From Collodictyon triciliatum (Eukaryota), in contig JBHJMP010000862.1 in assembly GCA_043381765.1 (NCBI GenBank), positions 1 through 41,130 of the forward strand: a stretch of DNA of 41,130 bases, written 5' to 3'. Below, one piece after another: positions 300 through 40,750 of this stretch. The notes beneath the pieces were generated by a model. It worked only from the letters and a program-made list of their open reading frames with translations, ran no database searches and was not told where the DNA came from. The position numbers were made by a program, and so were the translations under genes. Positions within the stretch are counted from its first letter, which is position 1. The number at the start of each line of letters is the position of its first letter.

Positions 300-5428
<5,129 letters not shown>

Positions 5429-8828: not shown

Positions 8829-11800
8829 TAAACAATAACTAAAAAAAAANNNNNNNNNNAAAAGTAAAAGTAAAAGTAAAAGTAAAAGTAAAAGTAAAAG
8901 TAAAAGTAAAAGTAAAAGTAAAAGTAAAAGTAAAAGTAAAAGTAAAAGTAAAAGTAAAAGATGATCGACCGATGGCCCATTCAATAATTTATTTTCCTAT
9001 TGTTAGGAAGAATTTGAAATTTTAAAAGACCTTGTTGAAAGTCAAAAGCGTGACATTGAGACATACGACGAAAAACTTCGCGAGATAAATCTGCACATGC
9101 TGAAGAAGGAGCAAGAGTATAATGAATCACTTCGAGAACATGAAGTACTCCGTGTTACCAACAATCGAAACATGGAGATTATCACAAGTCTTTCACAAGA
9201 CAAACTTACTCTGGAACACCATCTTATTGAGAAGAACAAAATAATTCAAACTTGGCTTGACGGAGCAGTTCAGGCCAGATTAGTGGAAGGGCACATTTCC
9301 GTCGAGAATATCTACTTTGATGAGGGAGACAGTTTCAATCATCAAGCACCTAATTCTTCTCGCCGTACAAATGCAAGCTTAATTCGAAATCGCATCGTAA
9401 ATGTAGCCGGAGAACTCAATCAAGCAAAATTGGATTCCTCCAAGCTTTTGACTCAAAACAAGGCTTTCCAAGATCAAATCCAAACGCTAAAGGCTCAGTT
9501 AGAATCAAAAACAAGCGAGGCCAGCAGACTAGAGGATTTAGTGTCTTCTAGTCAGAAAGGCTCAAATGAAAGCTCCACTGAAATAGAGAAATTGAGGGCA
9601 CTGCATCAGGAGAGGTCTGCCCAAATCGACAGATTAAAAACCATGATACTCGAAAAAGATAAAGAGATTGAGAAATGGAGCGACGCCCATTCACAAACGA
9701 ACGCCGAGTTGCTCAAGATGAAGGGAGCCTTGTCTTTAAAGGATAAAGAGATCAATATTTTACAAACTTCCATCAAAGCACAAAACGATGACACAGAGCG
9801 ACTAAGAGAGTCTATCACGGGACTGGAGACAGACCTGGAGCGGCGCACTACACAGTTGCGAGTGTCAAACGAAAAAATCATCAGTCTAACCAAAGAAAAA
9901 GAGGAATCTGCGAAAGTAGTTCTGGGTTTGCAGCAGTCCTTGAAAGGCATTCAATCACAGCTATCCGATTTCTCTCAGTACCGTTCTGAAACTGATGGCC
10001 TTAAACAGGAGCTGATTGAGGTGAGCGATGTCATGAAAGGTGTTATATCAACAATCGAAACTCACAACGCAAGAGGACAGCCACAACCCGTTCGCTCGCC
10101 CTTAAAAATGGCACGCCACATCGAGTCTCTTGTATTGGCTATGATTCGATACCTCAACGAGCAGGCTGATTTTCTCACATCAGTTTATGACGAGCTGGAT
10201 ATTGACCCGATGGAGGCCCATTCGACGTTGCTCCTTAAAGCTAGCGAACTGAAGAAGACCGACACAGCATATAAAGAACTGATGGTATCATCCCAATCGA
10301 CCACGGCTGAATACAAAGGTTACCTATCAAGTATTCGGGCTATCTTGGAGGAGTACGAGTCTATCCACGGATTCGCTTCCACCAGTGGAATTTCGTCGCA
10401 AAAATATGACCTTTCCATCTCCCACAATATATCGGCATCAGTGAAGAGCAAGCTTTACTTCTTGCATTCACAACTGAAAAACTCAGAGGGCATTATTAAA
10501 CAGAAAGACCAACAAATCGAGCAGCTGATGACTGTGTTGGACGCCACACGCTCAGAATACAAAAACCTTAGTCGTGCCAAGTCTCTTGATGCAGAAAAAC
10601 AAGGAGATATACAGAGTCGTCTCACCGTGACTCGCCAAAATTACATCCGTTTGTGTTCCTCCATCATCCAAACATTCAATTTATTGGTCAAGATCGAGAA
10701 GCCGAATGCTTCCACTATTCCTTTTGATATTGAAACACTCGACAAACGGGACATTCAAATATCCGAGGCATCTAGATATTGGAATGCAGTCCACCGATGC
10801 ATGGACTCATCATTTGAATTTGCAAAATTCAATGGCTCCATTCGAGATGAAGTGATTGATTGTATCAAGGCTGATAATGCCATCGAGGGAATTTGGAGAG
10901 AGAAAAACCTTCCCCGAGAGGCGCCTGGAACAGTATTTGGTTTTCATGAACAGTCCATAGATATCATACTAAACTTGCAAAAATATCTAAAGAAATACGA
11001 TGAATCAATTCACCAGCTTTACGCAGCCATGGGTCCCTTTCTTACACGAAGCACTTTGCCAACTGATGTAAATTCCTTCCAAAAACTTAATTTTGTGAAC
11101 GCTTTCATGGAGAAGCAGATGAAAAGGCTTCAAAAAATCGAGTCTGAAGCGATTCGTATTCAGAAATCCGAAGAAACCCTTCGTGCTCAGGTTACTGAGT
11201 ACGAAAACAAAGCAGCCGTCAACACAGAGCAAGAGAAAATCCGCACTAAGGAGCTGCAGGTCCAACTTGGAGATTTTAGGCGACTGGAAAGCGAAGTGGT
11301 GAGATTAAGAGGAGTTGAAAGCAAGCTCCTCGAAATGGAAGGAGTTCAGCATCTGTACACTCAATTGCAGGAAAATGAGAAGCACTTGTCAGAGAAGTAT
11401 CAGAGACTTGAGCAAGCCTTTTCAAGAATACAGGATAAAGAAAAGGCTCAATCTTCTCGTTGTAATGAACTGGAGTTGGAAGTTGTTCGTCTTCAACAGG
11501 CAGAGTCCAAACAGAGCCAGGTACAAATGTCCGAGGCAGAGAGAAAGCAATCTCTCAATCACGAGGCTGAAATTCAAAAGCTAGAGGCGACCATCAGACT
11601 TCTTACAACGAAAAGCGAGCAACTTGAACAAGAGAATACACAACTACGAAGATTAGAGTCCAAAGTGGCGAAGTTGAAAGAATATGAAACTGAAATCCGT
11701 CGATTGGAGAGTGTAGAAAAGGCCCTCGAGGAGAAATGTGGACATCTGGAACAAGAGAATATACAACTTCGAAGATTGGAGTCCAAAGTGGCGAAGTTGA

Positions 11801-12984
11801 AAGAATACGAAACTGAAATCCGTCGGCTGGAGGGTGCAGAGAAGGCCCTCGAGGCACAATACGAACAGTTGGAGAAAGATACGGCCCGTTTGCGAAGCAT
11901 GGAGCCGAAGATGCGAAAAATACCGGAGTATGAAGCCGAGATTCAGCGCCTGCGAAAAGCACAGACGGAGCCCCAAGAGGGAGATTTGGAGCGACTGCAG
12001 CAGCTGGAGCGAGAGCTCGGTCGAATCCAAAAGCTGGAATCAGATATCACCAAGTTACAGAAAGTGGAGGCTGAGTATCTGCGTCTGCAGACCCGATATC
12101 AGACTCTGGAGTGCGAGCGAGACATTCTCACACGTGAAAGCCAACAGTATCGCAAGGAGCGAGACATATACAAAAACTCGTATGAAACCCTGCAATCAGA
12201 CCACGCATCGACGCTGGACTCCATGGAGACCCTCCGTGTGAAGCTGAAGGAGGCCCACGCATTCGGAAGAAAAGAGAGCGAAGAGCGAACGAAACTGATA
12301 GAAGAACTGAACGAACTGCAGCAAAAGGACCAAACAAAGGCTGCCCTTCAGACGCCAGAGACCCACAACAGAGGCGACTCTGCCCGCCAAGTCGAGGCCC
12401 ACCGAGAACCCTTGTCCGCAGACGCCAATGCCTACCTCCAAGGCGCACACAGAACACTCGCAACATCCTCCAAATCACAGCAGGTGATTGCAACCATGGC
12501 TGGTGCAGCAGATACTCCAAACGCCCCAACCAACCTGACAAGGCACACCTCTTTCCAATCGTCAGGAAACCCATCATCCTCTGTGATGTACCCCAATGCA
12601 ACGGCAGTGAGTTCGTACTCGAGTGTCAACAAAGCGCAGCCGGGGACAAACATGAGTCTGCAGCGGACATTGTCTGCTGGCGAGGCCAAGTATGAGAGCA
12701 TGTATGGCAGCGTCAAACATGCGTCCTCAAGCGACTCGTACCGCTCAGCTGCATCCGTCTCTACAGACATCGCTGCGTCCAGTCAGCAGCAGCAACAACA
12801 ACAACAGCATCATCAGACGCAATACGCTGGGCATCCCGGCGCTCCTTCGGGCTATGGTGTGCCTCATCAGGTCGGCTTCGTGCATCCGGGGCAGCCTGGC
12901 ACGGCATATTGGCCCGGACAGCAGATACCTGGGAGGGTCAATACTGGAGGGACCAACCCGACGCTGTATTATCACAGGAGCTAG
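5923..12984 (+). CDS. RhoGAP domain protein with very long C-terminal coiled coil and low-complexity tail; 11 exons
   Basis: Exons 5923-5941, 6069-6206, 6580-6657, 6814-6945, 7114-7256, 7440-7525, 7676-~7851, 8055-8107, 8214-8275, 8440-8671, 9007-12984. RhoGAP motifs VFG...IPVVIQDCVTYL, VEGIFRIPG (arginine finger), DPHVVASLFKQYLRDLPESLIP, ENRMTVANLAVVIAPNLVR. The last exon is a 1.3k-codon E/K/L/Q-rich heptad ORF. Confidence 0.9.
6220..6396. repeat. (TCTATT)n microsatellite in RhoGAP intron 2
   Basis: Directly visible. Confidence 0.95.
8785..8960. repeat. Poly-A plus (AAAAGT)n microsatellite in RhoGAP intron 10 (with short N gap)
   Basis: Directly visible. Confidence 0.95.
11626..11960 (+). 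repeat. Coding tandem repeat, 123-nt (41 aa) unit; two near-identical copies plus a diverged third
   Basis: Units begin at 11626, 11749 and 11872: EQENTQLRRLESKVAKLKEYETEIRRLESVEKALE / EQENIQLRRLESKVAKLKEYETEIRRLEGAEKALE / EKDTARLRSMEPKMRKIPEYEAEIQRL. Confidence 0.9.
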
Positions 12985-13039: not shown

Positions 13040-13692
13040 NNNNNNNNNNNNNNNNNNNNNNNNNNNNNNNNNNNNNNNNNNNNNNNNNNNNNNNNNNNNN
13101 NNNNNNNNNNNNNNNNNNNNNNNNNNNNNNNNNNNNNNNNNNNNNNNNNNNNNNNNNNNNNNNNNNNNNNNNNNNNNNNNNNNNNNNNNNNNNNNNNNNN
13201 NNNNNNNNNNNNNNNNNNNNNNNNNNNNNNNNNNNNNNNNNNNNNNNNNNNNNNNNNNNNNNNNNNNNNNNNNNNNNNNNNNNNNNNNNNNNNNNNNNNN
13301 NNNNNNNNNNNNNNNNNNNNNNNNNNNNNNNNNNNNNNNNNNNNNNNNNNNNNNNNNNNNNNNNNNNNNNNNNNNNNNNNNNNNNNNNNNNNNNNNNNNN
13401 NNNNNNNNNNNNNNNNNNNNNNNNNNNNNNNNNNNNNNNNNNNNNNNNNNNNNNNNNNNNNNNNNNNNNNNNNNNNNNNNNNNNNNNNNNNNNNNNNNNN
13501 NNNNNNNNNNNNNNNNNNNNNNNNNNNNNNNNNNNNNNNNNNNNNNNNNNNNNNNNNNNNNNNNNNNNNNNNNNNNNNNNNNNNNNNNNNNNNNNNNNNN
13601 NNNNNNNNNNNNNNNNNNNNNNNNNNNNNNNNNNNNNNNNNNNNNNNNNNNNNNNNNNNNNNNNNNNNNNNNNNNNNNNNNNNNNNNNNNNN
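13040..13692. other. Assembly gap (N run)
   Basis: Run of N. Confidence 1.
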
Positions 13693-14268
13693 AAATCACG
13701 CAATCACATCAGCGAGGCAGTTTCGTGGGTATTTCCCTACATCGGTCGCGTCAAAGTTTCATGCAGGATTTATTCGGGGATGTGGGATTAAATCGACAGG
13801 CTGCACGAAAGAACCCCCCAGGCTCCAGCCGCACAGGCACAGCATTCCCCACAAAACCACTCTTTTGTGATGCTCCAACGCGTGATTATGGAAAGATAAG
13901 CAACTGCCCAGTGACATTCGTATGGTTATCCGTCTATATGTGTTTCCAGTTGCGCGTCACCCATAACACGCATAAAAAAAAAAAAAAAAAAGTAGATATG
14001 GTTGACACCTTAATTGAATGCCACGGCAAGGATACGCCAAAAAAAAAAAGAAAGCATGACAATTTGGTAACATAAGCTCAGAAAAGCGCGGCATCGCGAA
14101 GCTCACCTCCTTTGACGTGCGCAGGCTTTGCTAACTAAAAACATTCCATGCAGGCTGTTACGCTCGGATCACACGAGAACTATACATAAAGGAAAAAGAA
14201 AAAACAACTACCCGCTGCAAAGCTTCCTCGTTCTTGGCTTGTGCGCGCGGCGTTCGCAAGTCGAGCTT

Positions 14269-20000: not shown

Positions 20001-20745
20001 TTGCTATACACCGCGATTGAAAGGCGAATCCCATGCAAACCTTGAGCCAATAATCCTTTGGCTGCAACAACTCTGGCCGTAAAATCTAAAGGGACGACTT
20101 CAACAGATGCGACCATACCGCAATATAGAGGCAAACGATTCTCGGACCGGTGCCGAGATACTCGAGTTTTGCCCGTCCACGCCCAAACAAGTTGTTGAAC
20201 AAAACACATTCTCCTGAAGTAAAGGATGTCAGACGTTCCATCTCTGTGGCTGTTTGCAAGAAAAGAGCACGAAAGCGCGACAAATAAAAACAATAATAGC
20301 GGTTGGAGAGACAGCGGGGGGAAACTGCCGGATACAATCAGTGCCATGTTCCGCTTACTTTTTCCTCCAGTTATCGGATGAAATAGTTTGCATCACGACT
20401 TTAGTTCGAGTTGATGATATCTTAAGTGGCAAAAAAAAAAAAAAAAAAAAAGTAGGAAATATAAGACATAGTTATAATACACAAACTGTCGATGCCATTA
20501 GCAAAACTGAGATAAATAATTCCTTATGGCAATTGAAATGGAAAGTAACGATTTAAGTTTGTGTCCTTGATGTTAAAATGACAGCATCTCGTAAAAATCA
20601 GCTGCACCGCATATTGGACATAATAAAGATAGCTAGTTGAATTAGAAAAGGAAGATTCATTTTACTATTTATAAATAGGAAGGTATTGTGTTCCATGATA
20701 CGCGGGGGATGAGGCAGATAGACAGAGTAAAGTTCACACGATTTT

Positions 20746-21115
20746 CTATTCGCCAAGGAGTTTCTTCTCCTTGACATTTCGGTCAGAGAGGATGCTGATT
20801 GTGGACTGGACAAAGTTCATATATCTGCAGAAGTCAGCATTAGATAATCAGAGAAGAATCTTTTTGTAACTACTAACAATGGATATATGAATATGATAAT
20901 TTCTCAATAAAATAAAATATAATATACAGGATATCCACCAAATGTTTTTTTCTGGAAGGAATTAATGTATTGTATATTACGATTTCGAGGAGGATTGCAT
21001 TTCTTTTTGTTCGTCTCTGTCTTTCACGGCCTCCGTTCTCTAAGTCGTTTACTCATTTAAAAAATAGAATAGAATGATACAGAAAGGACCTTTGCTATCC
21101 TCCTATGTTGCCGAT

Positions 21116-21146
<31 letters not shown>

Positions 21147-23366
21147 ACAAAACAAAACAAAACAAAACAAAACAAAACAAAACAAAACAAAACAAAACAA
21201 AACAAAACAAAACAAAAAACAAAAACAAATGGATTTTTTTCTTATAGCGATAAATGAATCCGTACGCGGTTGCTAGCCATGATTGTCTGGTGCAAGAATA
21301 ACAACTTATCCAGTCGGTCATTTATCGTGCAATAATGTTCTCTCATCTACATGTGCGCATGATTAATGGAATAATTAATATTATATTTAAAAAATTTTTT
21401 AAAAAAAAGGCAATCAGAGTAAACAGTAAACTTGGATAGATTCAATTATATGTGAAGAATGGCATTTGAGCGACACTGTGAAATAAACAAACATCATGGT
21501 ATCTTTTCATGGCATGCCGCAGCTTCTCAAATCGAGGCTGACGGTTTTCCTCTTCCACGCCGCCTGATAAAAAAAAACAATAATTATTTGTCTCCTTAAA
21601 ATTTATATAGAATTGGCAAAGACAGAAAAAAAATATTCGGATCCAAAGGAACACTACGAGTATGAAATTAATGAACAGGTACGATTGTTTATGCCACAAA
21701 GTCAACATGCACAACACAAGATTGTTTGTCACTGACCAATCAGATTTCCATAGCCAAGTTTTGCTTTGGTGGTAAAGTCCAAGAAGGCAGGATGGGGCAT
21801 GACTTTTGGTGTGAGCGTTATGCGGTCGGTTTCCTACGACATGATTGACTTTAAAAAAGCAGGCATATTCTATACGATGCATGTTGTGCGTTCGTTTTTG
21901 AGTTTCTTCGGTTTCGAAACCCTCCTGTTCCTAACACAAACCTGTCTTTCTTCTGGAGGCTCTATACGAGGGAACAAGGAGAAAGCCAAAAAGTCTGTTG
22001 ATTTCTTCTGGTCGTCTTTGAGCTGGGCAGGATAAATAAACGAGCCATATGATGGTAAATAATCATGAAAAGCACGTTTAAAAGGATGAATTGCGTGTAA
22101 TAAATCTACTTGAAGCACGTTTAAACTCATTCATACACAATGCATGCACCTGCATAGAGTATCCGTATCCATATATCCCATAGGTGAATATGATTTCCAA
22201 GTGGATTTCCCCCACATTCTGGTGATTGCTAAGCAAATCAAAACTGCCCCGGATTGGACTCCACTAGAAAGTATAGTGGAATATTAACTTCAAAGATGCT
22301 ATTTGTGAAGCAACGGACCACAATCTCTGCCAGGATCAGTAACGCGCTTATCATGGGAAAGTATCCCACCTTAATCACATCGTGCAGATGGAAAGCAACA
22401 GAGGCAACCTCCTGATGCTCATGGGCACTGCTGGCATCAAAGGCAAACAACTGGAGATGAAGCAGATTGAAAGGATGCTTTGGATTCCTTAAAACCTATG
22501 ATCAACCACAGTGAGTGTAGAAATTGAATCCAAATGACAAGATAACGAAGGATAACTCGAGCACAATTAATTGCAAATGACTATGCATTGCATATGCATG
22601 TGAACGCGTCTTTGTAACAAAGATATAGTAATAGAATGGAGGGTGCTCACAGAGACTGGGAAATGCTTCACTTGGTTCCACACAACATGGCCAAATTGAT
22701 TCAAGACAACACGCGTGCGCTTTGAAAGATTTCGGACAGACATTCGCACGTAAGTATTTCCGTGGCTGAGGTTGGAGCCTTTCATAGTATAATAGAAAAC
22801 ATAAGACGCTCATAGGCGGTAACGAGACGAGTCTACATTCACAACAACTTCAGGAGAATGACAGTAAGTGCAAAGTATACACATTCAGTATATTTTAAGG
22901 CTGCGGTAATTTGAAGGAAAATGAAGTGGGGGGATGCCCTGGGAGAACTTTTCAAAAGAAAATATTCTTTTGAGTCACAATTAAAGAGAAAAATAAAATA
23001 AAAGTCTGGTAAAACAATCGCAAGGGTGAGGTCATTGTGTGCGGATAAACCTTCAATGTAGAGTTTGCGGGCCTCCTTCACAACGACCGTCACAACACCG
23101 TACTGCAAAACATTGTGAGCGAAAGTTGAAGAAAGATTCAAGAGTTAGAGAGCAGAAAAGAAAAGAAAAGAAAAGAAAAGAAAAGGAAAGAAAAACAACC
23201 CATGATTCAGGATAGCACGGAAGAGAGAACCAAAAAGTACCACAGAAGGATGAGTTTCGTCCTCAATCAGGAGCTTCCGAAGATTTGCCGAACCGAAAGA
23301 GTTGCTTCCGCTCTCTTCGCCCATCGCGCCTCTCCTTGAGCTCCTTCTTTGTTCTCCTACAGGCAT
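20746..23366 (-). CDS. C2CD6: C2CD6/ALS2CR11 (CatSper-tau)-like C2-domain protein; about 11 exons, start codon (23366 or ~23324) and last two exons tentative
   Basis: Exons 23366-23241, 23102-23051, 22778-22651, 22495-22370, 22263-22150, 22022-21942, 21833-21737, 21563-21493, 21346-21266, 21039-20981, 20824-20746. Spliced protein YGVVTVVVKEARKL..TYVRMSVRNLSKRTRV..VVWNQVKHFPVSVLRNPKHPFNLLHLQLFAFD..VASVAFHLHDVIK..GEIHLEIIFTYGIYGYGYSMQLK..SLFPRIEPPEERQETDRITLTPKVMPHPAFL follows the recalled C2CD6 pattern (..HLYEVIQ..LEVEFMFSYGNFGYGFSHQLK..SMF....PPPER..TPQTVEYPAFL). Confidence 0.75.
21118..21228. repeat. (AAAAC)n microsatellite in an intron of the C2CD6-like gene
   Basis: Directly visible. Confidence 0.95.
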
Positions 23367-24184
23367 TCATGCAAGGATCGAAGCTGGTCTTGGTTATCAA
23401 CATCATTGGTATCTTCGACTCTGCGCGCTGCTGCCTTCGCGGTGTCTCCGTTCGATGATCAAAGTACCGTCCAGGCTGATGATCACATCAAAGTCTTTGT
23501 TGTGATTAATCAGCGAAAAATCTGTGTTTTTGAGGCCGCATCACATTGCAACGGATGTGCTTATTTGGTATCATGAAGTGGAATATCGACGGTTATTGGC
23601 TTCTGGGTTTGTTGGGTTGCGTGTCCGCATGTGTAAAAATTGGAAGGAGGGGCGTGGATGCATCGCTCGTCTGTGTTTTGGGACAAGAAAAGAAAAGGCA
23701 GAAGAAAACACAAACATAAAACTCAGACATGAATAAACACAAGATAACTGGAAGATAGGCACATCGTGTATGAGATTCGAGAGGAGTGTGCGACAGTTGA
23801 TGTCTTTTCTTTTTCTTTTTTGTTCGTGAATACTTTTGTTTATTCAGTGCATTTCTGCGTTGTGATTTGATATCGAGTGCAAATAGCGAGGCACGAGGTT
23901 TTTGAAGTGGTGTAAGGCTGGGCATTCTATATGAATTCGAGAGAAAGGCAGGATAAAAAGAAATGGAGGAAAGAATAAAGAGGATGTGGCTTAGTACCTC
24001 TTTTTTAAATATGTTCTAAAGGTATCCACAACGCAAACGAGGCAAAGTCATATAGGGAAACTGTATGTCATGTTTTGTCTTCAGCATCCGTTGGATTGCA
24101 GTGAAGAGCAAAATAGGGCTCCGACGAGAATCGATGTGGCCGCAAAGAAAAAAAAAACAAGGATGCGCATCGTTGATGTGTTGT

Positions 24185-37107: not shown

Positions 37108-40100
37108 TCAGCTAAAGACATCAGGAACTGCGGCCCAATTGGCAGACTCGCGAGACTCCCAGTATCCGCCCAGATATGTCCACGTCTCGCAGCCCAAAGC
37201 CGGGTCGTTTCGGCGGGTGAACCAAAGCGGATGCCAAAGCGTCCCGTCTCTCTCGCGGATTCTGCGTGCCTCGCGCTGCTTTTCCTCAAGGCGCTGCTTC
37301 TCTCGTGTCGCGGCATCAAACTGGCCCTCTTCAAGGAGACGCTGGTCAGGACGCAGGCGTGTGTCTGTCGGAGGCAGAACCTGCCGGAGAGCCGGGCTGA
37401 TTTCGTTGAGTCCAAAGGAAAAGTACGAGAAGTGGTAGAACTGCTCGCTGTTTGGCGGGGTCGGCTTCACGGTCCAGAGCCGAGTCCATGCGCTTTTCGG
37501 GTCGCGCGGGTCTGTCCCGCTGTGATACGGCATGTACGAGAAGTGCTCGTTCCACATGCTGTGCACAAGGTAGATTGCCTGGCCGCGGCTGTCAAGGACC
37601 TTCCCGCTGACAAGATACTTTGTGTTGTCGAACCAGCCCTTCTTGTGGAACTCGAGCACGCATGTATCTCCGGTGGCGTGGTTGCGGATCTGCATTTCTC
37701 CAGAGTGTGTTAGGTAGAGCGCACCCACGACGAGGTTGTGTACGGTGGTGGAAACCTGTGTTTGTGCGCGATGGTGTAAGCATGTGAATGGGGTGGTCGC
37801 CATTGTCTTTCACTCGAGAACGAGAAAGAGAGTATGGTGCGAGACCATGCTTTTTGGTTGGGTTTGCTGGTGGTGGTAAACCATGAAGGTGATTGTGAGT
37901 GTACATGATGGTTCTTTTTTTTTTCGACTTTTTTTTTGTGGATAAGCAATTAAACAAAAGGAATAGCAAAAGGAAAAGGAAAAATGAAATGGCAAAGGAT
38001 TACTTAAAGAAAATAGGATAGTGTGGTTTACCTTGTTCCAACTGTACCGATGTTTATTGTCTCCAAACACGACGTTCACTGCACCTTCTGGAATGAGTTC
38101 GAGGTGTTTACCCCAGAATTTGTTTTTGAGTTGCATTTCTCCATAGATAGAGTAGCCGCACGCTTGTGCATTGAAGGCCGTGACCGGTGGATGGTGGCTC
38201 ACTTGCTCGGAAAAGAAGCGAATGTTGCTATCTTCGTATTCGTAGGTCTCTCCGAGGACAGGATTGAATGGTTTGCTGGTTCTAATACATTGAAATGAAT
38301 CGTGTAGGTTCTGCTTTGATTATTTTATTTATTTTTTTACTTTGATTTTTTTTTTTTTGCTCCGGTTGATTTCTCACAAATCAATAATTGTTTTTTTTTT
38401 TTTTTTAGAAAAAAAAGCGGCGATCGAATCAAATCGAAAAAAAAAGTGAATGAATGAGTCAATGACCTTCTTCATTCGATGAGCATTGGAGAATAGGAGT
38501 GGAAAGAAAGGAAAAGGAAAAGGTGTGAACCTGTGTTCTGTGTACCCGTATCCAGATATTGCAAATGCAGCCACATAGAGCATTCTCGTTAGTGGATCTT
38601 TATACTCCAGTCCTTTTCGAAGTAAGCCATGGTATTCTATCTCCTCGCAAGCACGCTGTAAAGAATTCAAGGGTTCGTTCCAATTTGCTGGGAAGGATAT
38701 TCGTGACAAGTCCTTTCCCACTGCGTCTTTCAATCCGCTCCATAGACTAATACCTTTCGAACACTTTGGGTGCGGTAGACTTTGGCGATGTTTCTCTTTG
38801 AAGACAGGTGTCCATAGAGTATTCGTCGGGCTTTCTTCTTGTCTAGGAGACACTTGGATGACACCTTTATTCCAGAATGTGCCCACTTCTCGAGATGTTT
38901 CTATTTGTTTTAGTGGTGGCACGGCAACTGGGATTTTCAAGTTTTCTAACCCATCAAAGTCACCAAATCCAGGGTTGGCATCATACACGGGTGTGTTTTC
39001 AGAATTATCAACAGAACCATCCCCACTCTCGTCTGAGTCTTCTCCAGCCTAATGGTGCATAGGGTTTAGTTCATCGAACTTATTAAGCAGGATTTATCAA
39101 GGCAAAATTTTAAGACTGTTTAATATCATCATAATGCATATCAGATCTACATACCATGCAGCTGTAGAAAGTTCCTTCATCGTCGAGAGTTTGTTTTTGA
39201 GAAGCCATGCTACGTGGCGATATGATGCTCCTTTGAACAAGGCGAACACAATCTTCCACGGATAATACGATATCTGATGCCAAGTCTTCAATGATTGAAA
39301 TTCCTTGTCTGTGAGTCAACCGAAGCTGTCGAAGTTGGGCTATAAAGCGACTTTTGTAAGTTTGAAGTTCCTGAAGCCTTTCAAATAATTGTTGCATTTC
39401 AGTCGATGGACTTTGCATGGGGTTTTGTTTCTCTCTGTATTGTATATGTAAGAATTATTAGTCATTCCTTAGAATTATGATAAATGAAGATATATTATAT
39501 GAAGCTTAGTCCTTTAAAGTCTTTCTTTGGGGATATAATATTTGGATAGATGTGGCAATTTAAACATATATTCGTACTGTACGACTGATTCTTGGCTAAT
39601 GTTTATGCCGAGAGTCAATATTTGAACCCAATAATCCCTATCTGTCTTGCTACCGAACTTAATTGTGAAATTTTTTGTTGAATCGATGATCATTTGATTT
39701 TGCTTTTCCTTGCACGGTGTGATGGTAGCATTTAATAACCTATGATTCACACAAATGCCTTGATAACTTGCTTCGAGAAAAAAAAGAAGTCTTCATTTAT
39801 TATCAGGCTTCAGCGCTCTGACAGAGGATTTTATATATATGAAAGAAAATCATAATTTGTTTCGCACTAAACAAAAGATTTATATTCATTTCTCTCATAT
39901 TAGAATATATTTTTCCATTTTTTCACAGATAAAAAAGGAACTGATGAATTAAAAGAGTCTGTACGTATATATTATAAAGAAAGGGGACTTAATGACACAC
40001 ATCGTCTGATNNNNNNNNNNNNNNNNNNNNNNNNNNNNNNNNNNNNNNNNNNNNNNNNNNNNNNNNNNNNNNNNNNNNNNNNNNNNNNNNNNNNNNNNNN

Positions 40101-40750
40101 NNNNNNNNNNNNNNNNNNNNNNNNNNNNNNNNNNNNNNNNNNNNNNNNNNNNNNNNNNNNNNNNNNNNNNNNNNNNNNNNNNNNNNNNNNNNNNNNNNNN
40201 NNNNNNNNNNNNNNNNNNNNNNNNNNNNNNNNNNNNNNNNNNNNNNNNNNNNNNNNNNNNNNNNNNNNNNNNNNNNNNNNNNNNNNNNNNNNNNNNNNNN
40301 NNNNNNNNNNNNNNNNNNNNNNNNNNNNNNNNNNNNNNNNNNNNNNNNNNNNNNNNNNNNNNNNNNNNNNNNNNNNNNNNNNNNNNNNNNNNNNNNNNNN
40401 NNNNNNNNNNNNNNNNNNNNNNNNNNNNNNNNNNNNNNNNNNNNNNNNNNNNNNNNNNNNNNNNNNNNNNNNNNNNNNNNNNNNNNNNNNNNNNNNNNNN
40501 NCGCTTCCTATGCAAAGAAGGGTTCCTTCATATTGTGGCTGCGGTTCGTTTCCGGGTAAAGTCTTCCTGTTTTCGTTGTTCTTTTGCTGTTCTTTTCTGC
40601 CTGGTAAAGCAGGCTCGATCGGCAGCAGATGCTTGTGTCTTTGCGTATCGGCGTTGTGTGGTTTTGCAGCTTCATTTTGCAACCTTCTTTGGCGCTTTGT
40701 TCTGCTCGTTGCGAAAGCGTGATCTGATTCGCCAATGTCCAGATTAAGCC
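37108..40750 (-). CDS. Oxysterol-binding protein-related protein (PH + ORD); 5' part interrupted by N gap, start not defined
   Basis: ORD motifs SLWSGLKDAVGKDLSRISFPANWNEPLNSLQR, KPFNPVLGETYE, EQVSHHPP (signature), KFWGKHLEL and LPPTDTRLRPDQRLLEEG..EKQRLEEKQR; stop at 37108. PH remnant ATITPCKEKQNQMII..SKTDRDYWVQIL (39750-39580); probable PH beta-1 QYEGTLL next to the gap (~40530). The upstream boundary is tentative. Confidence 0.9.
40011..40501. other. Assembly gap (N run) inside the OSBP-related gene
   Basis: Run of N. Confidence 1.

Follow-up and report, generated by a model that had tools for sequence, protein, structure and literature searches.

The 41,130-nt contig JBHJMP010000862.1 of the CRuMs flagellate Collodictyon triciliatum, the whole of which was analysed and is referred to here as the window, contains an intact, spliced and transcribed minus-strand gene (23366/23324 to 20746) whose product, as judged by sequence comparison, ranks as an orthologue-grade C2CD6/CatSper-tau protein (Pfam family PF15729, CTSRT). 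The conserved core of this protein is a compact module consisting of a C2 domain and a set of post-C2 motifs, and CRuMs, Metamonada, Rhizaria, the Rhodelphis lineage, zoosporic fungi, Ichthyosporea and echinoderms, at the least, all carry that module. The C2CD6 family is far older than animals. The gene itself is new and belongs to a family already known; its evolutionary placement is solid and somewhat unexpected. C2CD6 has been described as 'conserved in vertebrates' (bioRxiv 10.1101/2021.07.06.451342) and is needed for male fertility in mice. We consider it probable, with some reserve, that the Collodictyon protein is a C2CD6-family orthologue that serves as a C2 membrane adaptor coupling flagellar cargo to ciliary trafficking.

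Family assignment and homology beyond the C2 domain

A homologue search with the exon-5 open reading frame (ORF), a 61-aa query that contains the 38-aa exon, gave a single match, a complete 323-aa ORF in the Diphylleia rotans transcriptome (EukProt EP00002) that is unnamed there and is called P0001 here. The spliced window protein is identical to P0001 at 266 of 323 positions (82%) over the whole length, and the next relatives stand at about 43% identity. The Pfam CTSRT profile, whose gathering cut-off is 24.4 bits, scores P0001 at 38.5 bits (E 1.8e-9) and aligns to it over positions 7-143 of the 143 in the profile. The NT-C2 profile (PF10358) reaches 17.0 bits on the same protein, under its cut-off of 25.2, and the generic C2 profile (PF00168) is not among the matches listed at E<=1. 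The original prediction had called the gene C2CD6/CatSper-tau-like and had proposed to check whether the best profile match is another C2 family; for P0001 it is not, and the assignment extends to the window protein itself. A hidden Markov model (HMM) of 21 mammalian C2CD6 N-termini scores the spliced window protein at 106.7 bits (residues 28-310; E 1.4e-25, scaled to 1.84e9 sequences), and among a background of 806 stop-to-stop ORFs of the window only the exon-5 ORF scores against it (22.5 bits). The resemblance is thus more than chance. Direct alignment places residues 28-274 of the window protein on residues 106-352 of human C2CD6 (P0218) with 28% identity over 257 aa and 84.7 bits.

A phmmer search with P0001 against 1.84 billion representatives, in which each match is a cluster at 50% identity, returned 234 proteins at E<=1e-3, of which 136 reach <=1e-10 and 39 reach <=1e-30. 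The best matches are proteins of 365-490 aa whose alignments are near-complete over the query, and long proteins (1,573-3,352 aa) match residues 27-296 of P0001 through their N-termini. The long matches that were looked up, three in all, come from rhinoceros, Peromyscus and Sminthopsis, and each bears the name CatSper-tau or C2CD6. The rhinoceros 'cation channel sperm-associated targeting subunit tau' aligns at E 1.1e-16 over residues 27-296 of the query, which takes in the C2 domain and the post-C2 region. No animal match among those listed or looked up is anything but C2CD6/ALS2CR11/CatSper-tau or its unnamed equivalent, so the search leads back to the same family. Against CTSRT, four mammalian members score 217-278 bits and six protist-type members 21-43 bits, five of the six over the cut-off. 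PF15729 labels, assigned automatically by Pfam, are already present on protist records, and the family assignment itself is therefore database-level knowledge.

The homology continues for about 130 residues past the C2 domain, and the post-C2 motifs and helix of the C2CD6/CatSper-tau group are found there. The post-C2 signature on which the original prediction had leaned occurs in mammalian C2CD6 as well, as a check for its absence from animal members made clear. In a 20-sequence alignment with five mammals, the F.YG.FGYG.S.QLK loop keeps Y157, G158, G161, G163 and Q167 without exception, and the SLFPR..PP.ER and HP.F(I/L) stretches are common to the alignment members, mammals included. Further along, in the helix encoded by exon 9, R261 is invariant and L268 nearly so among 38 non-mammal members.

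These results bear on a simpler reading, that the gene encodes an ordinary C2 protein of another family whose likeness to C2CD6 is one of generic fold only. A fold search does match many plain C2 domains; PF00168 passes its own cut-off (22 bits) on the relatives P0007, P0008 and P0016 and outscores CTSRT in P0016; and an Atlas feature search ranked an RPGRIP1-type C2 cluster equal to the CTSRT cluster (0.90 for both), a weak lead given that its recognition lay below its own threshold. We nevertheless regard this reading as very improbable: it is contradicted by the motif alignment, with residues past the C2 domain that are invariant from protists to mammals, by the alignment to human C2CD6 and by the mammal-only HMM, whose E-value holds at whole-library scale, and CTSRT outranks NT-C2 on the orthologue with PF00168 unlisted.

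A transcribed gene of eleven exons

A scripted exon model, guided by tblastn with P0001, resolves the gene into 11 exons that encode 323 aa in a coding sequence of 972 nt. The frame is intact throughout, all ten introns have GT..AG borders, and the stop codon is TAG, with the 3' end at 20746. Translation may start at either of two in-frame ATGs, one at 23366, which is the end coordinate of the original prediction and adds 14 residues, or one at 23324, which coincides in the alignment with the beginning of the Diphylleia orthologue.

Contigs of 938 and 871 nt from the public sequencing runs X1 and X2, more than 99% alike to the window, cross ten of ten introns exactly at the predicted borders. 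The skipped segments end CT..AC on the plus strand, that is, GT..AG on the gene strand. Only spliced RNA can yield a contig with ten introns missing at canonical sites, and the gene is therefore transcribed. The label of these runs as RNA is a guess from the index, none of the listed runs that contain the sequence being recorded as RNA, and since both come from one study we count them as one line of support. They contain about 0.28 of the sampled words of window positions 20700-23400, near the exon share of that stretch. Lower-depth X1/X2 contigs (22752-23079) retain intron 2 and represent either unspliced transcript or DNA in these runs. One loose contig end resembles a cDNA-amplification primer. 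Two other runs were compared with the window: X17 gave no contig placed on it, and the freshwater metagenome X3 yielded a single unspliced contig, 348 nt long.

The 5' untranslated region is longer than the exon 1 part, the X1/X2 contigs continuing upstream beyond 23400. Since the contigs run past 23400, the leader of the transcript also contains several ATGs ahead of the likely start, out of frame at about 23406, 23403 and 23370 and in frame at 23366. We further note two intronic microsatellites, one in intron 9 at 21115-21228 with about 20 AAAAC copies (plus strand) and the other a GAAAA/AAAAG-type pentanucleotide run in intron 1 at 23157-23200; both were skipped as repeats in contig mapping.

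The gene that the original prediction had placed at 20746-23366 is there, and all the motifs it quoted are present, each within one exon (5, 6, 7 and 9). Its exon picture was complete but for the 59-nt exon 10 at 21039-20981. The exons are as follows, with joints being the coordinates brought together in the contigs.

Exon 1, 23241..23366 (coding from 23366 or 23324), minus strand: N-terminal helix region LRKLLIEDETHPSV; donor after 23241; contig joint 23102>23241.
Exon 2, 23051..23102, minus strand: first C2 strand YGVVTVVVKEARKLYIE; joints 22778>23051 and 23102>23241.
Exon 3, 22651..22778, minus strand: C2 strands including K.T and W.Q.KHFPV; its ORF has a weak Pfam C2 match.
Exon 4, 22370..22495, minus strand: C2 domain, HPFNLL...FHLHDVIK.
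Exon 5, 22150..22263, minus strand: last C2 strands and family-defining motif FTYGIYGYGYSMQ.
Exon 6, 21942..22022, minus strand: proline-rich motif LK...SLFPRIEPPEER; LKDDQKK...SLFPRIEPPEERQ.
Exon 7, 21737..21833, minus strand: TP....HPAFL motif (TLTPKVMPHPAFLDF) and linker.
Exon 8, 21493..21563, minus strand: start of the helical region, RFEKLRHAMKRYHD; helices 239-256 in the orthologue model.
Exon 9, 21266..21346, minus strand: conserved helix MREHYCTINDRLDKLLFLHQTIMASNR; MREHYCTINDRLDKLLFL lies in this exon; confidence score about 95 in the orthologue model.
Exon 10, 20981..21039, minus strand: 59 nt, short acidic/basic linker, placed by tblastn of P0001; joints 20824>20981 and 21039>21266.
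Exon 11, 20746..20824, minus strand: C-terminal helix and TAG, placed by tblastn of P0001.

Taxonomic range and descent of the family

Names were obtained for 20 of 150 listed representatives, and it is on these that the taxonomic range rests. Besides mammals, the named members come from three species of Allomyces, Paraphysoderma sedebokerense, the chytrid Gorgonomyces haynaldii, the ichthyosporean Chromosphaera perkinsii, the metamonad Paratrimastix pyriformis, Rhodelphis marinus, the rhizarian Lapot gusevi and the sea star Acanthaster planci, whose protein is already labelled 'C2CD6-like'; the remainder of the 20 are without an organism name. A search with a non-mammal alignment returned only six proteins and an earlier alignment search was dominated by mammals, which is why the range depends on the 20 look-ups. 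Among the records, P0010 (Allomyces arbusculus KAJ3375953.1) and P0270 carry the title 'Hyaluronan and proteoglycan link protein 1', apparently an automatic misnaming.

A maximum-likelihood tree of 56 rows was built by quick search, with support from the Shimodaira-Hasegawa-like approximate likelihood ratio test (SH-aLRT) only. It contains an animal-type clade adjoined by Chromosphaera, a fungal clade with support of 99 and the remaining protists, among which the window protein pairs with Diphylleia at a support of 100. The deep branches of this tree are weakly supported and several of its rows are long-branched. No second animal clade or competing paralogue appears among its 56 rows. The gene tree is compatible with one old family that would have been inherited vertically.

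The placement also supports the earlier claim that this is not an animal genome: the best relative is the Diphylleia rotans transcript, and the tree position lies outside the Holozoa clade. For a pseudogene, a fortuitous series of ORFs or contamination by animal DNA no evidence was found; single exons by themselves do give almost no database signal. The probability of such an artefact is negligible, as the gene model, with its unbroken frame over 11 exons and canonical splice sites, the spliced contigs in two runs, the 82% identity to a protist transcript and the tree position outside the animal clade all contradict it. The original prediction had proposed a flagellated or gamete stage for the organism, which adds little because Diphyllatea are described as bi- or quadriflagellates, Diphylleia being biflagellate and the Collodictyon-type clades quadriflagellate (PMC11603278).

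We found no statement of a pan-eukaryotic C2CD6 family with a compact ancestral form in the available portions of the literature, whose figures or supplements might contain such maps.

Predicted structure and character of the C2 domain

The window protein comprises an N-terminal helix, a C2 domain (about 27-157), the F.YG.FGYG.S.QLK loop, the SLFPR..PP.ER and HP.F(L/I) stretches and a helical pair. An AlphaFold2 model of P0001, made with 87 aligned relatives, has a mean predicted local distance difference test score (pLDDT) of 81.3. It predicts a helix at 8-23, a beta-sandwich at 27-157 with pLDDT above 90 and helices at about 239-274 near 90-95; the motif loop at 163-167 falls below 50 and the tail is poorly defined. 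Foldseek comparison of the model with the PDB recovers ordinary C2 domains only, over about 135 columns and with target-normalised template modelling scores (TM-scores) of 0.7-0.83, including otoferlin C2A (0.83), MCTP2, dysferlin, E-Syt and Trichomonas C2 proteins.

Within this fold two sequence features of a classical C2 domain are not found: the exon-3 ORF reaches PF00168 at a sub-threshold 19.3 bits (E 0.0014), and the aspartate positions are not conserved. In a weak PDB alignment, two loop-1 aspartates of Munc13-1 C2B correspond to an Ala/Ser-type residue and Asn in the family consensus, and the loop-3 ligand positions are variable across the family alignment. The unconserved loop aspartates suggest that the C2 domain probably does not bind Ca2+.

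Possible function of the compact module

In mouse, CatSper-tau reaches the flagellum by itself and brings pre-assembled CatSper into flagellar nanodomains, its targeting of CatSper to the flagellum is C2-dependent, and the protein loses its function when the C2 domain is truncated (PMC8857959; bioRxiv 10.1101/2021.07.06.451342). By analogy, the window protein would be a cytosolic adaptor that associates with membranes through its C2 domain, and the conserved post-C2 motifs would couple flagellar membrane cargo to ciliary trafficking. The most likely cargo would be a CatSper-type Ca2+ channel, provided that the organism possesses one. Most economically, the module may represent the working core of the family, a membrane-associating C2 domain joined to conserved linear motifs and to helices, both of which would bind cargo or carrier, because it is the only part of the mammalian protein that is conserved down to protists, and it makes up the entire window protein. 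CatSper is favoured as cargo because the family is small and patchy and because two of the lineages that hold it have been reported with CatSper. These are Allomyces, reported to have CatSper genes (bioRxiv 10.1101/230292), and echinoderms, in which CatSper is reported to be active in sea urchin sperm (PMC11222122); Allomyces and an echinoderm both contain family members. CatSper is also reported to be older than the unikont/bikont split (PMC5362262) and has been reported in the metamonad Carpediemonas (bioRxiv 10.1101/2021.03.14.435266), in a sample that did not include Paratrimastix, which counts for the same cargo. Teleosts, birds, amphibians and protostomes are lineages reported without CatSper (PMC2572835); Dembech et al. 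(2023) mention neither CatSper nor C2CD6.

Several points weigh against the adaptor explanation or parts of it. CatSper as cargo in this flagellate is argued from the mouse analogy; no CatSper subunit was found there, no search aimed at one having been made. Two co-evolution screens recover a cluster of Catsper1-4, b-e, Efcab9, Tmem249 and Armh2 and, in the text available, do not name C2cd6, so that strict co-distribution of C2CD6 and CatSper is undocumented in these sources. The post-C2 part, to which the coupling is assigned, has no Foldseek match in the PDB and middling model confidence. No family member turned up when the PDB was searched by sequence, the only match being Munc13-1 C2B at E 0.099. 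The apparent loss of Ca2+ ligands is read from alignment columns rather than from a structure. CTSRT was found in none of ten single-exon ORFs, so the Pfam result belongs to the 82%-identical orthologue; the lone exons fail in Pfam because they are too short.

The silence of the co-evolution clusters also favours a different role for a true C2CD6 orthologue, independent of CatSper, in which the protein was ancestrally a general ciliary or membrane-trafficking adaptor, or had some other role, with recruitment to CatSper taking place in animals alone. Members occur in Paratrimastix, Rhodelphis, Lapot and Diphylleia, for which no report of CatSper was found among the literature matches listed, and the capacity of mouse CatSper-tau to reach the flagellum alone (PMC8857959) would fit such a role. 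The size of the family argues otherwise, in that its 234 clusters (50% identity; 1.84e9 representatives searched) fit a patchy, accessory gene like CatSper better than a core ciliary one. The reports of CatSper in two holder lineages point the same way, and in the sources available CatSper targeting is the one function of this family known from experiment. We therefore consider a CatSper-independent role unlikely, while giving it real weight.

A broader form of the adaptor explanation is that CatSper-tau is a component of the flagellar CatSper system as old as the last common ancestor of eukaryotes (LECA), with an original form that was compact, at ~320 aa, an invariant post-C2 glycine/aromatic loop that couples the channel or carrier vesicles to ciliary trafficking, and a working CatSper system in this CRuMs flagellate. 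We put this broader form forward tentatively, as possible and short of probable. If it were true, CatSper-tau would not be a vertebrate addition.

Whichever cargo applies, the invariant loop and the helices indicate likely functional residues, and the small homologues are tractable for structural and cell-biological work. The question of whether the targeting subunit is part of an ancient CatSper core is thereby made testable.

Other features of the window

The leucine-rich repeat (LRR) neighbours that the original prediction had named are real: two large plus-strand ORFs at 1334-3647 match LRR_1 with 51 bits each, and one of them also matches DUF7630 with 27.3 bits. The remaining features are listed below.

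9007-12984, plus strand: uninterrupted 1,325-aa ORF rich in E, L, S, Q and K, coiled-coil-like with a Q/P/S-rich tail; no Pfam family at E<=0.001; unlike the short-exon gene.
38374-39048, minus strand: opening part of an oxysterol-binding protein domain (PF01237, 79.3 bits; positions 1-78 of the 368 in the profile), probably one exon of a gene related to oxysterol-binding protein.
About 13040-13700 and 40010-40500: runs of N, 1,161 N in total, which account for the apparent very low G+C and the spurious all-frame ORFs there.

Scanning the window for Rfam families and tRNAs gave no matches.

Comparison with known systems

The C2 domain of the window protein shares its beta-sandwich fold with the classical Ca2+-binding C2 domains of synaptotagmin, Munc13, otoferlin and dysferlin (PF00168), whose loop aspartates, in contrast, are not conserved in the C2CD6 family.

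The Diphylleia rotans protein is a direct orthologue, equal in length (323 aa) and colinear overall. It differs at 18% of residues, which puts the window in another species or clade of Diphyllatea, and its transcript record is without annotation or genomic context.

Next come the named zoosporic-fungal and protist members, namely Allomyces KNE59416.1, Paraphysoderma KAI9137033.1, Gorgonomyces KAI8911702.1 and Paratrimastix KAJ4454598.1, together with those of Rhodelphis, Lapot and Chromosphaera. These are likewise compact (365-491 aa), 33-44% identical to P0001 and aligned over nearly the full query. The two of these seven that were scanned, Paraphysoderma and Paratrimastix, match CTSRT with 33.6-42.6 bits, and three protist-type relatives from outside the seven score 21.3-33.5. 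The seven differ in their variable low-complexity C-terminal tails, and none has a described function.

Mammalian C2CD6/ALS2CR11/CatSper-tau (CATSPERT) is the member for which CatSper association, testis specificity and flagellar localisation are known, from mouse and human only (PMC8857959; bioRxiv 10.1101/2021.07.06.451342). It is much larger, at about 620 aa (short) and at least 1,800 aa (long) in the forms listed compared with 323 aa here, and the window protein is without the mammalian N-terminal extension of ~100 residues and the entire C-terminal part. Both have the C2 domain towards the N-terminus, followed by the post-C2 loop, S(L/M)F..PP.ER and (H/Y)P.F(L/I) and then a helix with a conserved aromatic/leucine pattern. 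The shared module, about 270 residues long, is the N-terminus of mammalian CatSper-tau and in Collodictyon amounts to the protein as a whole.

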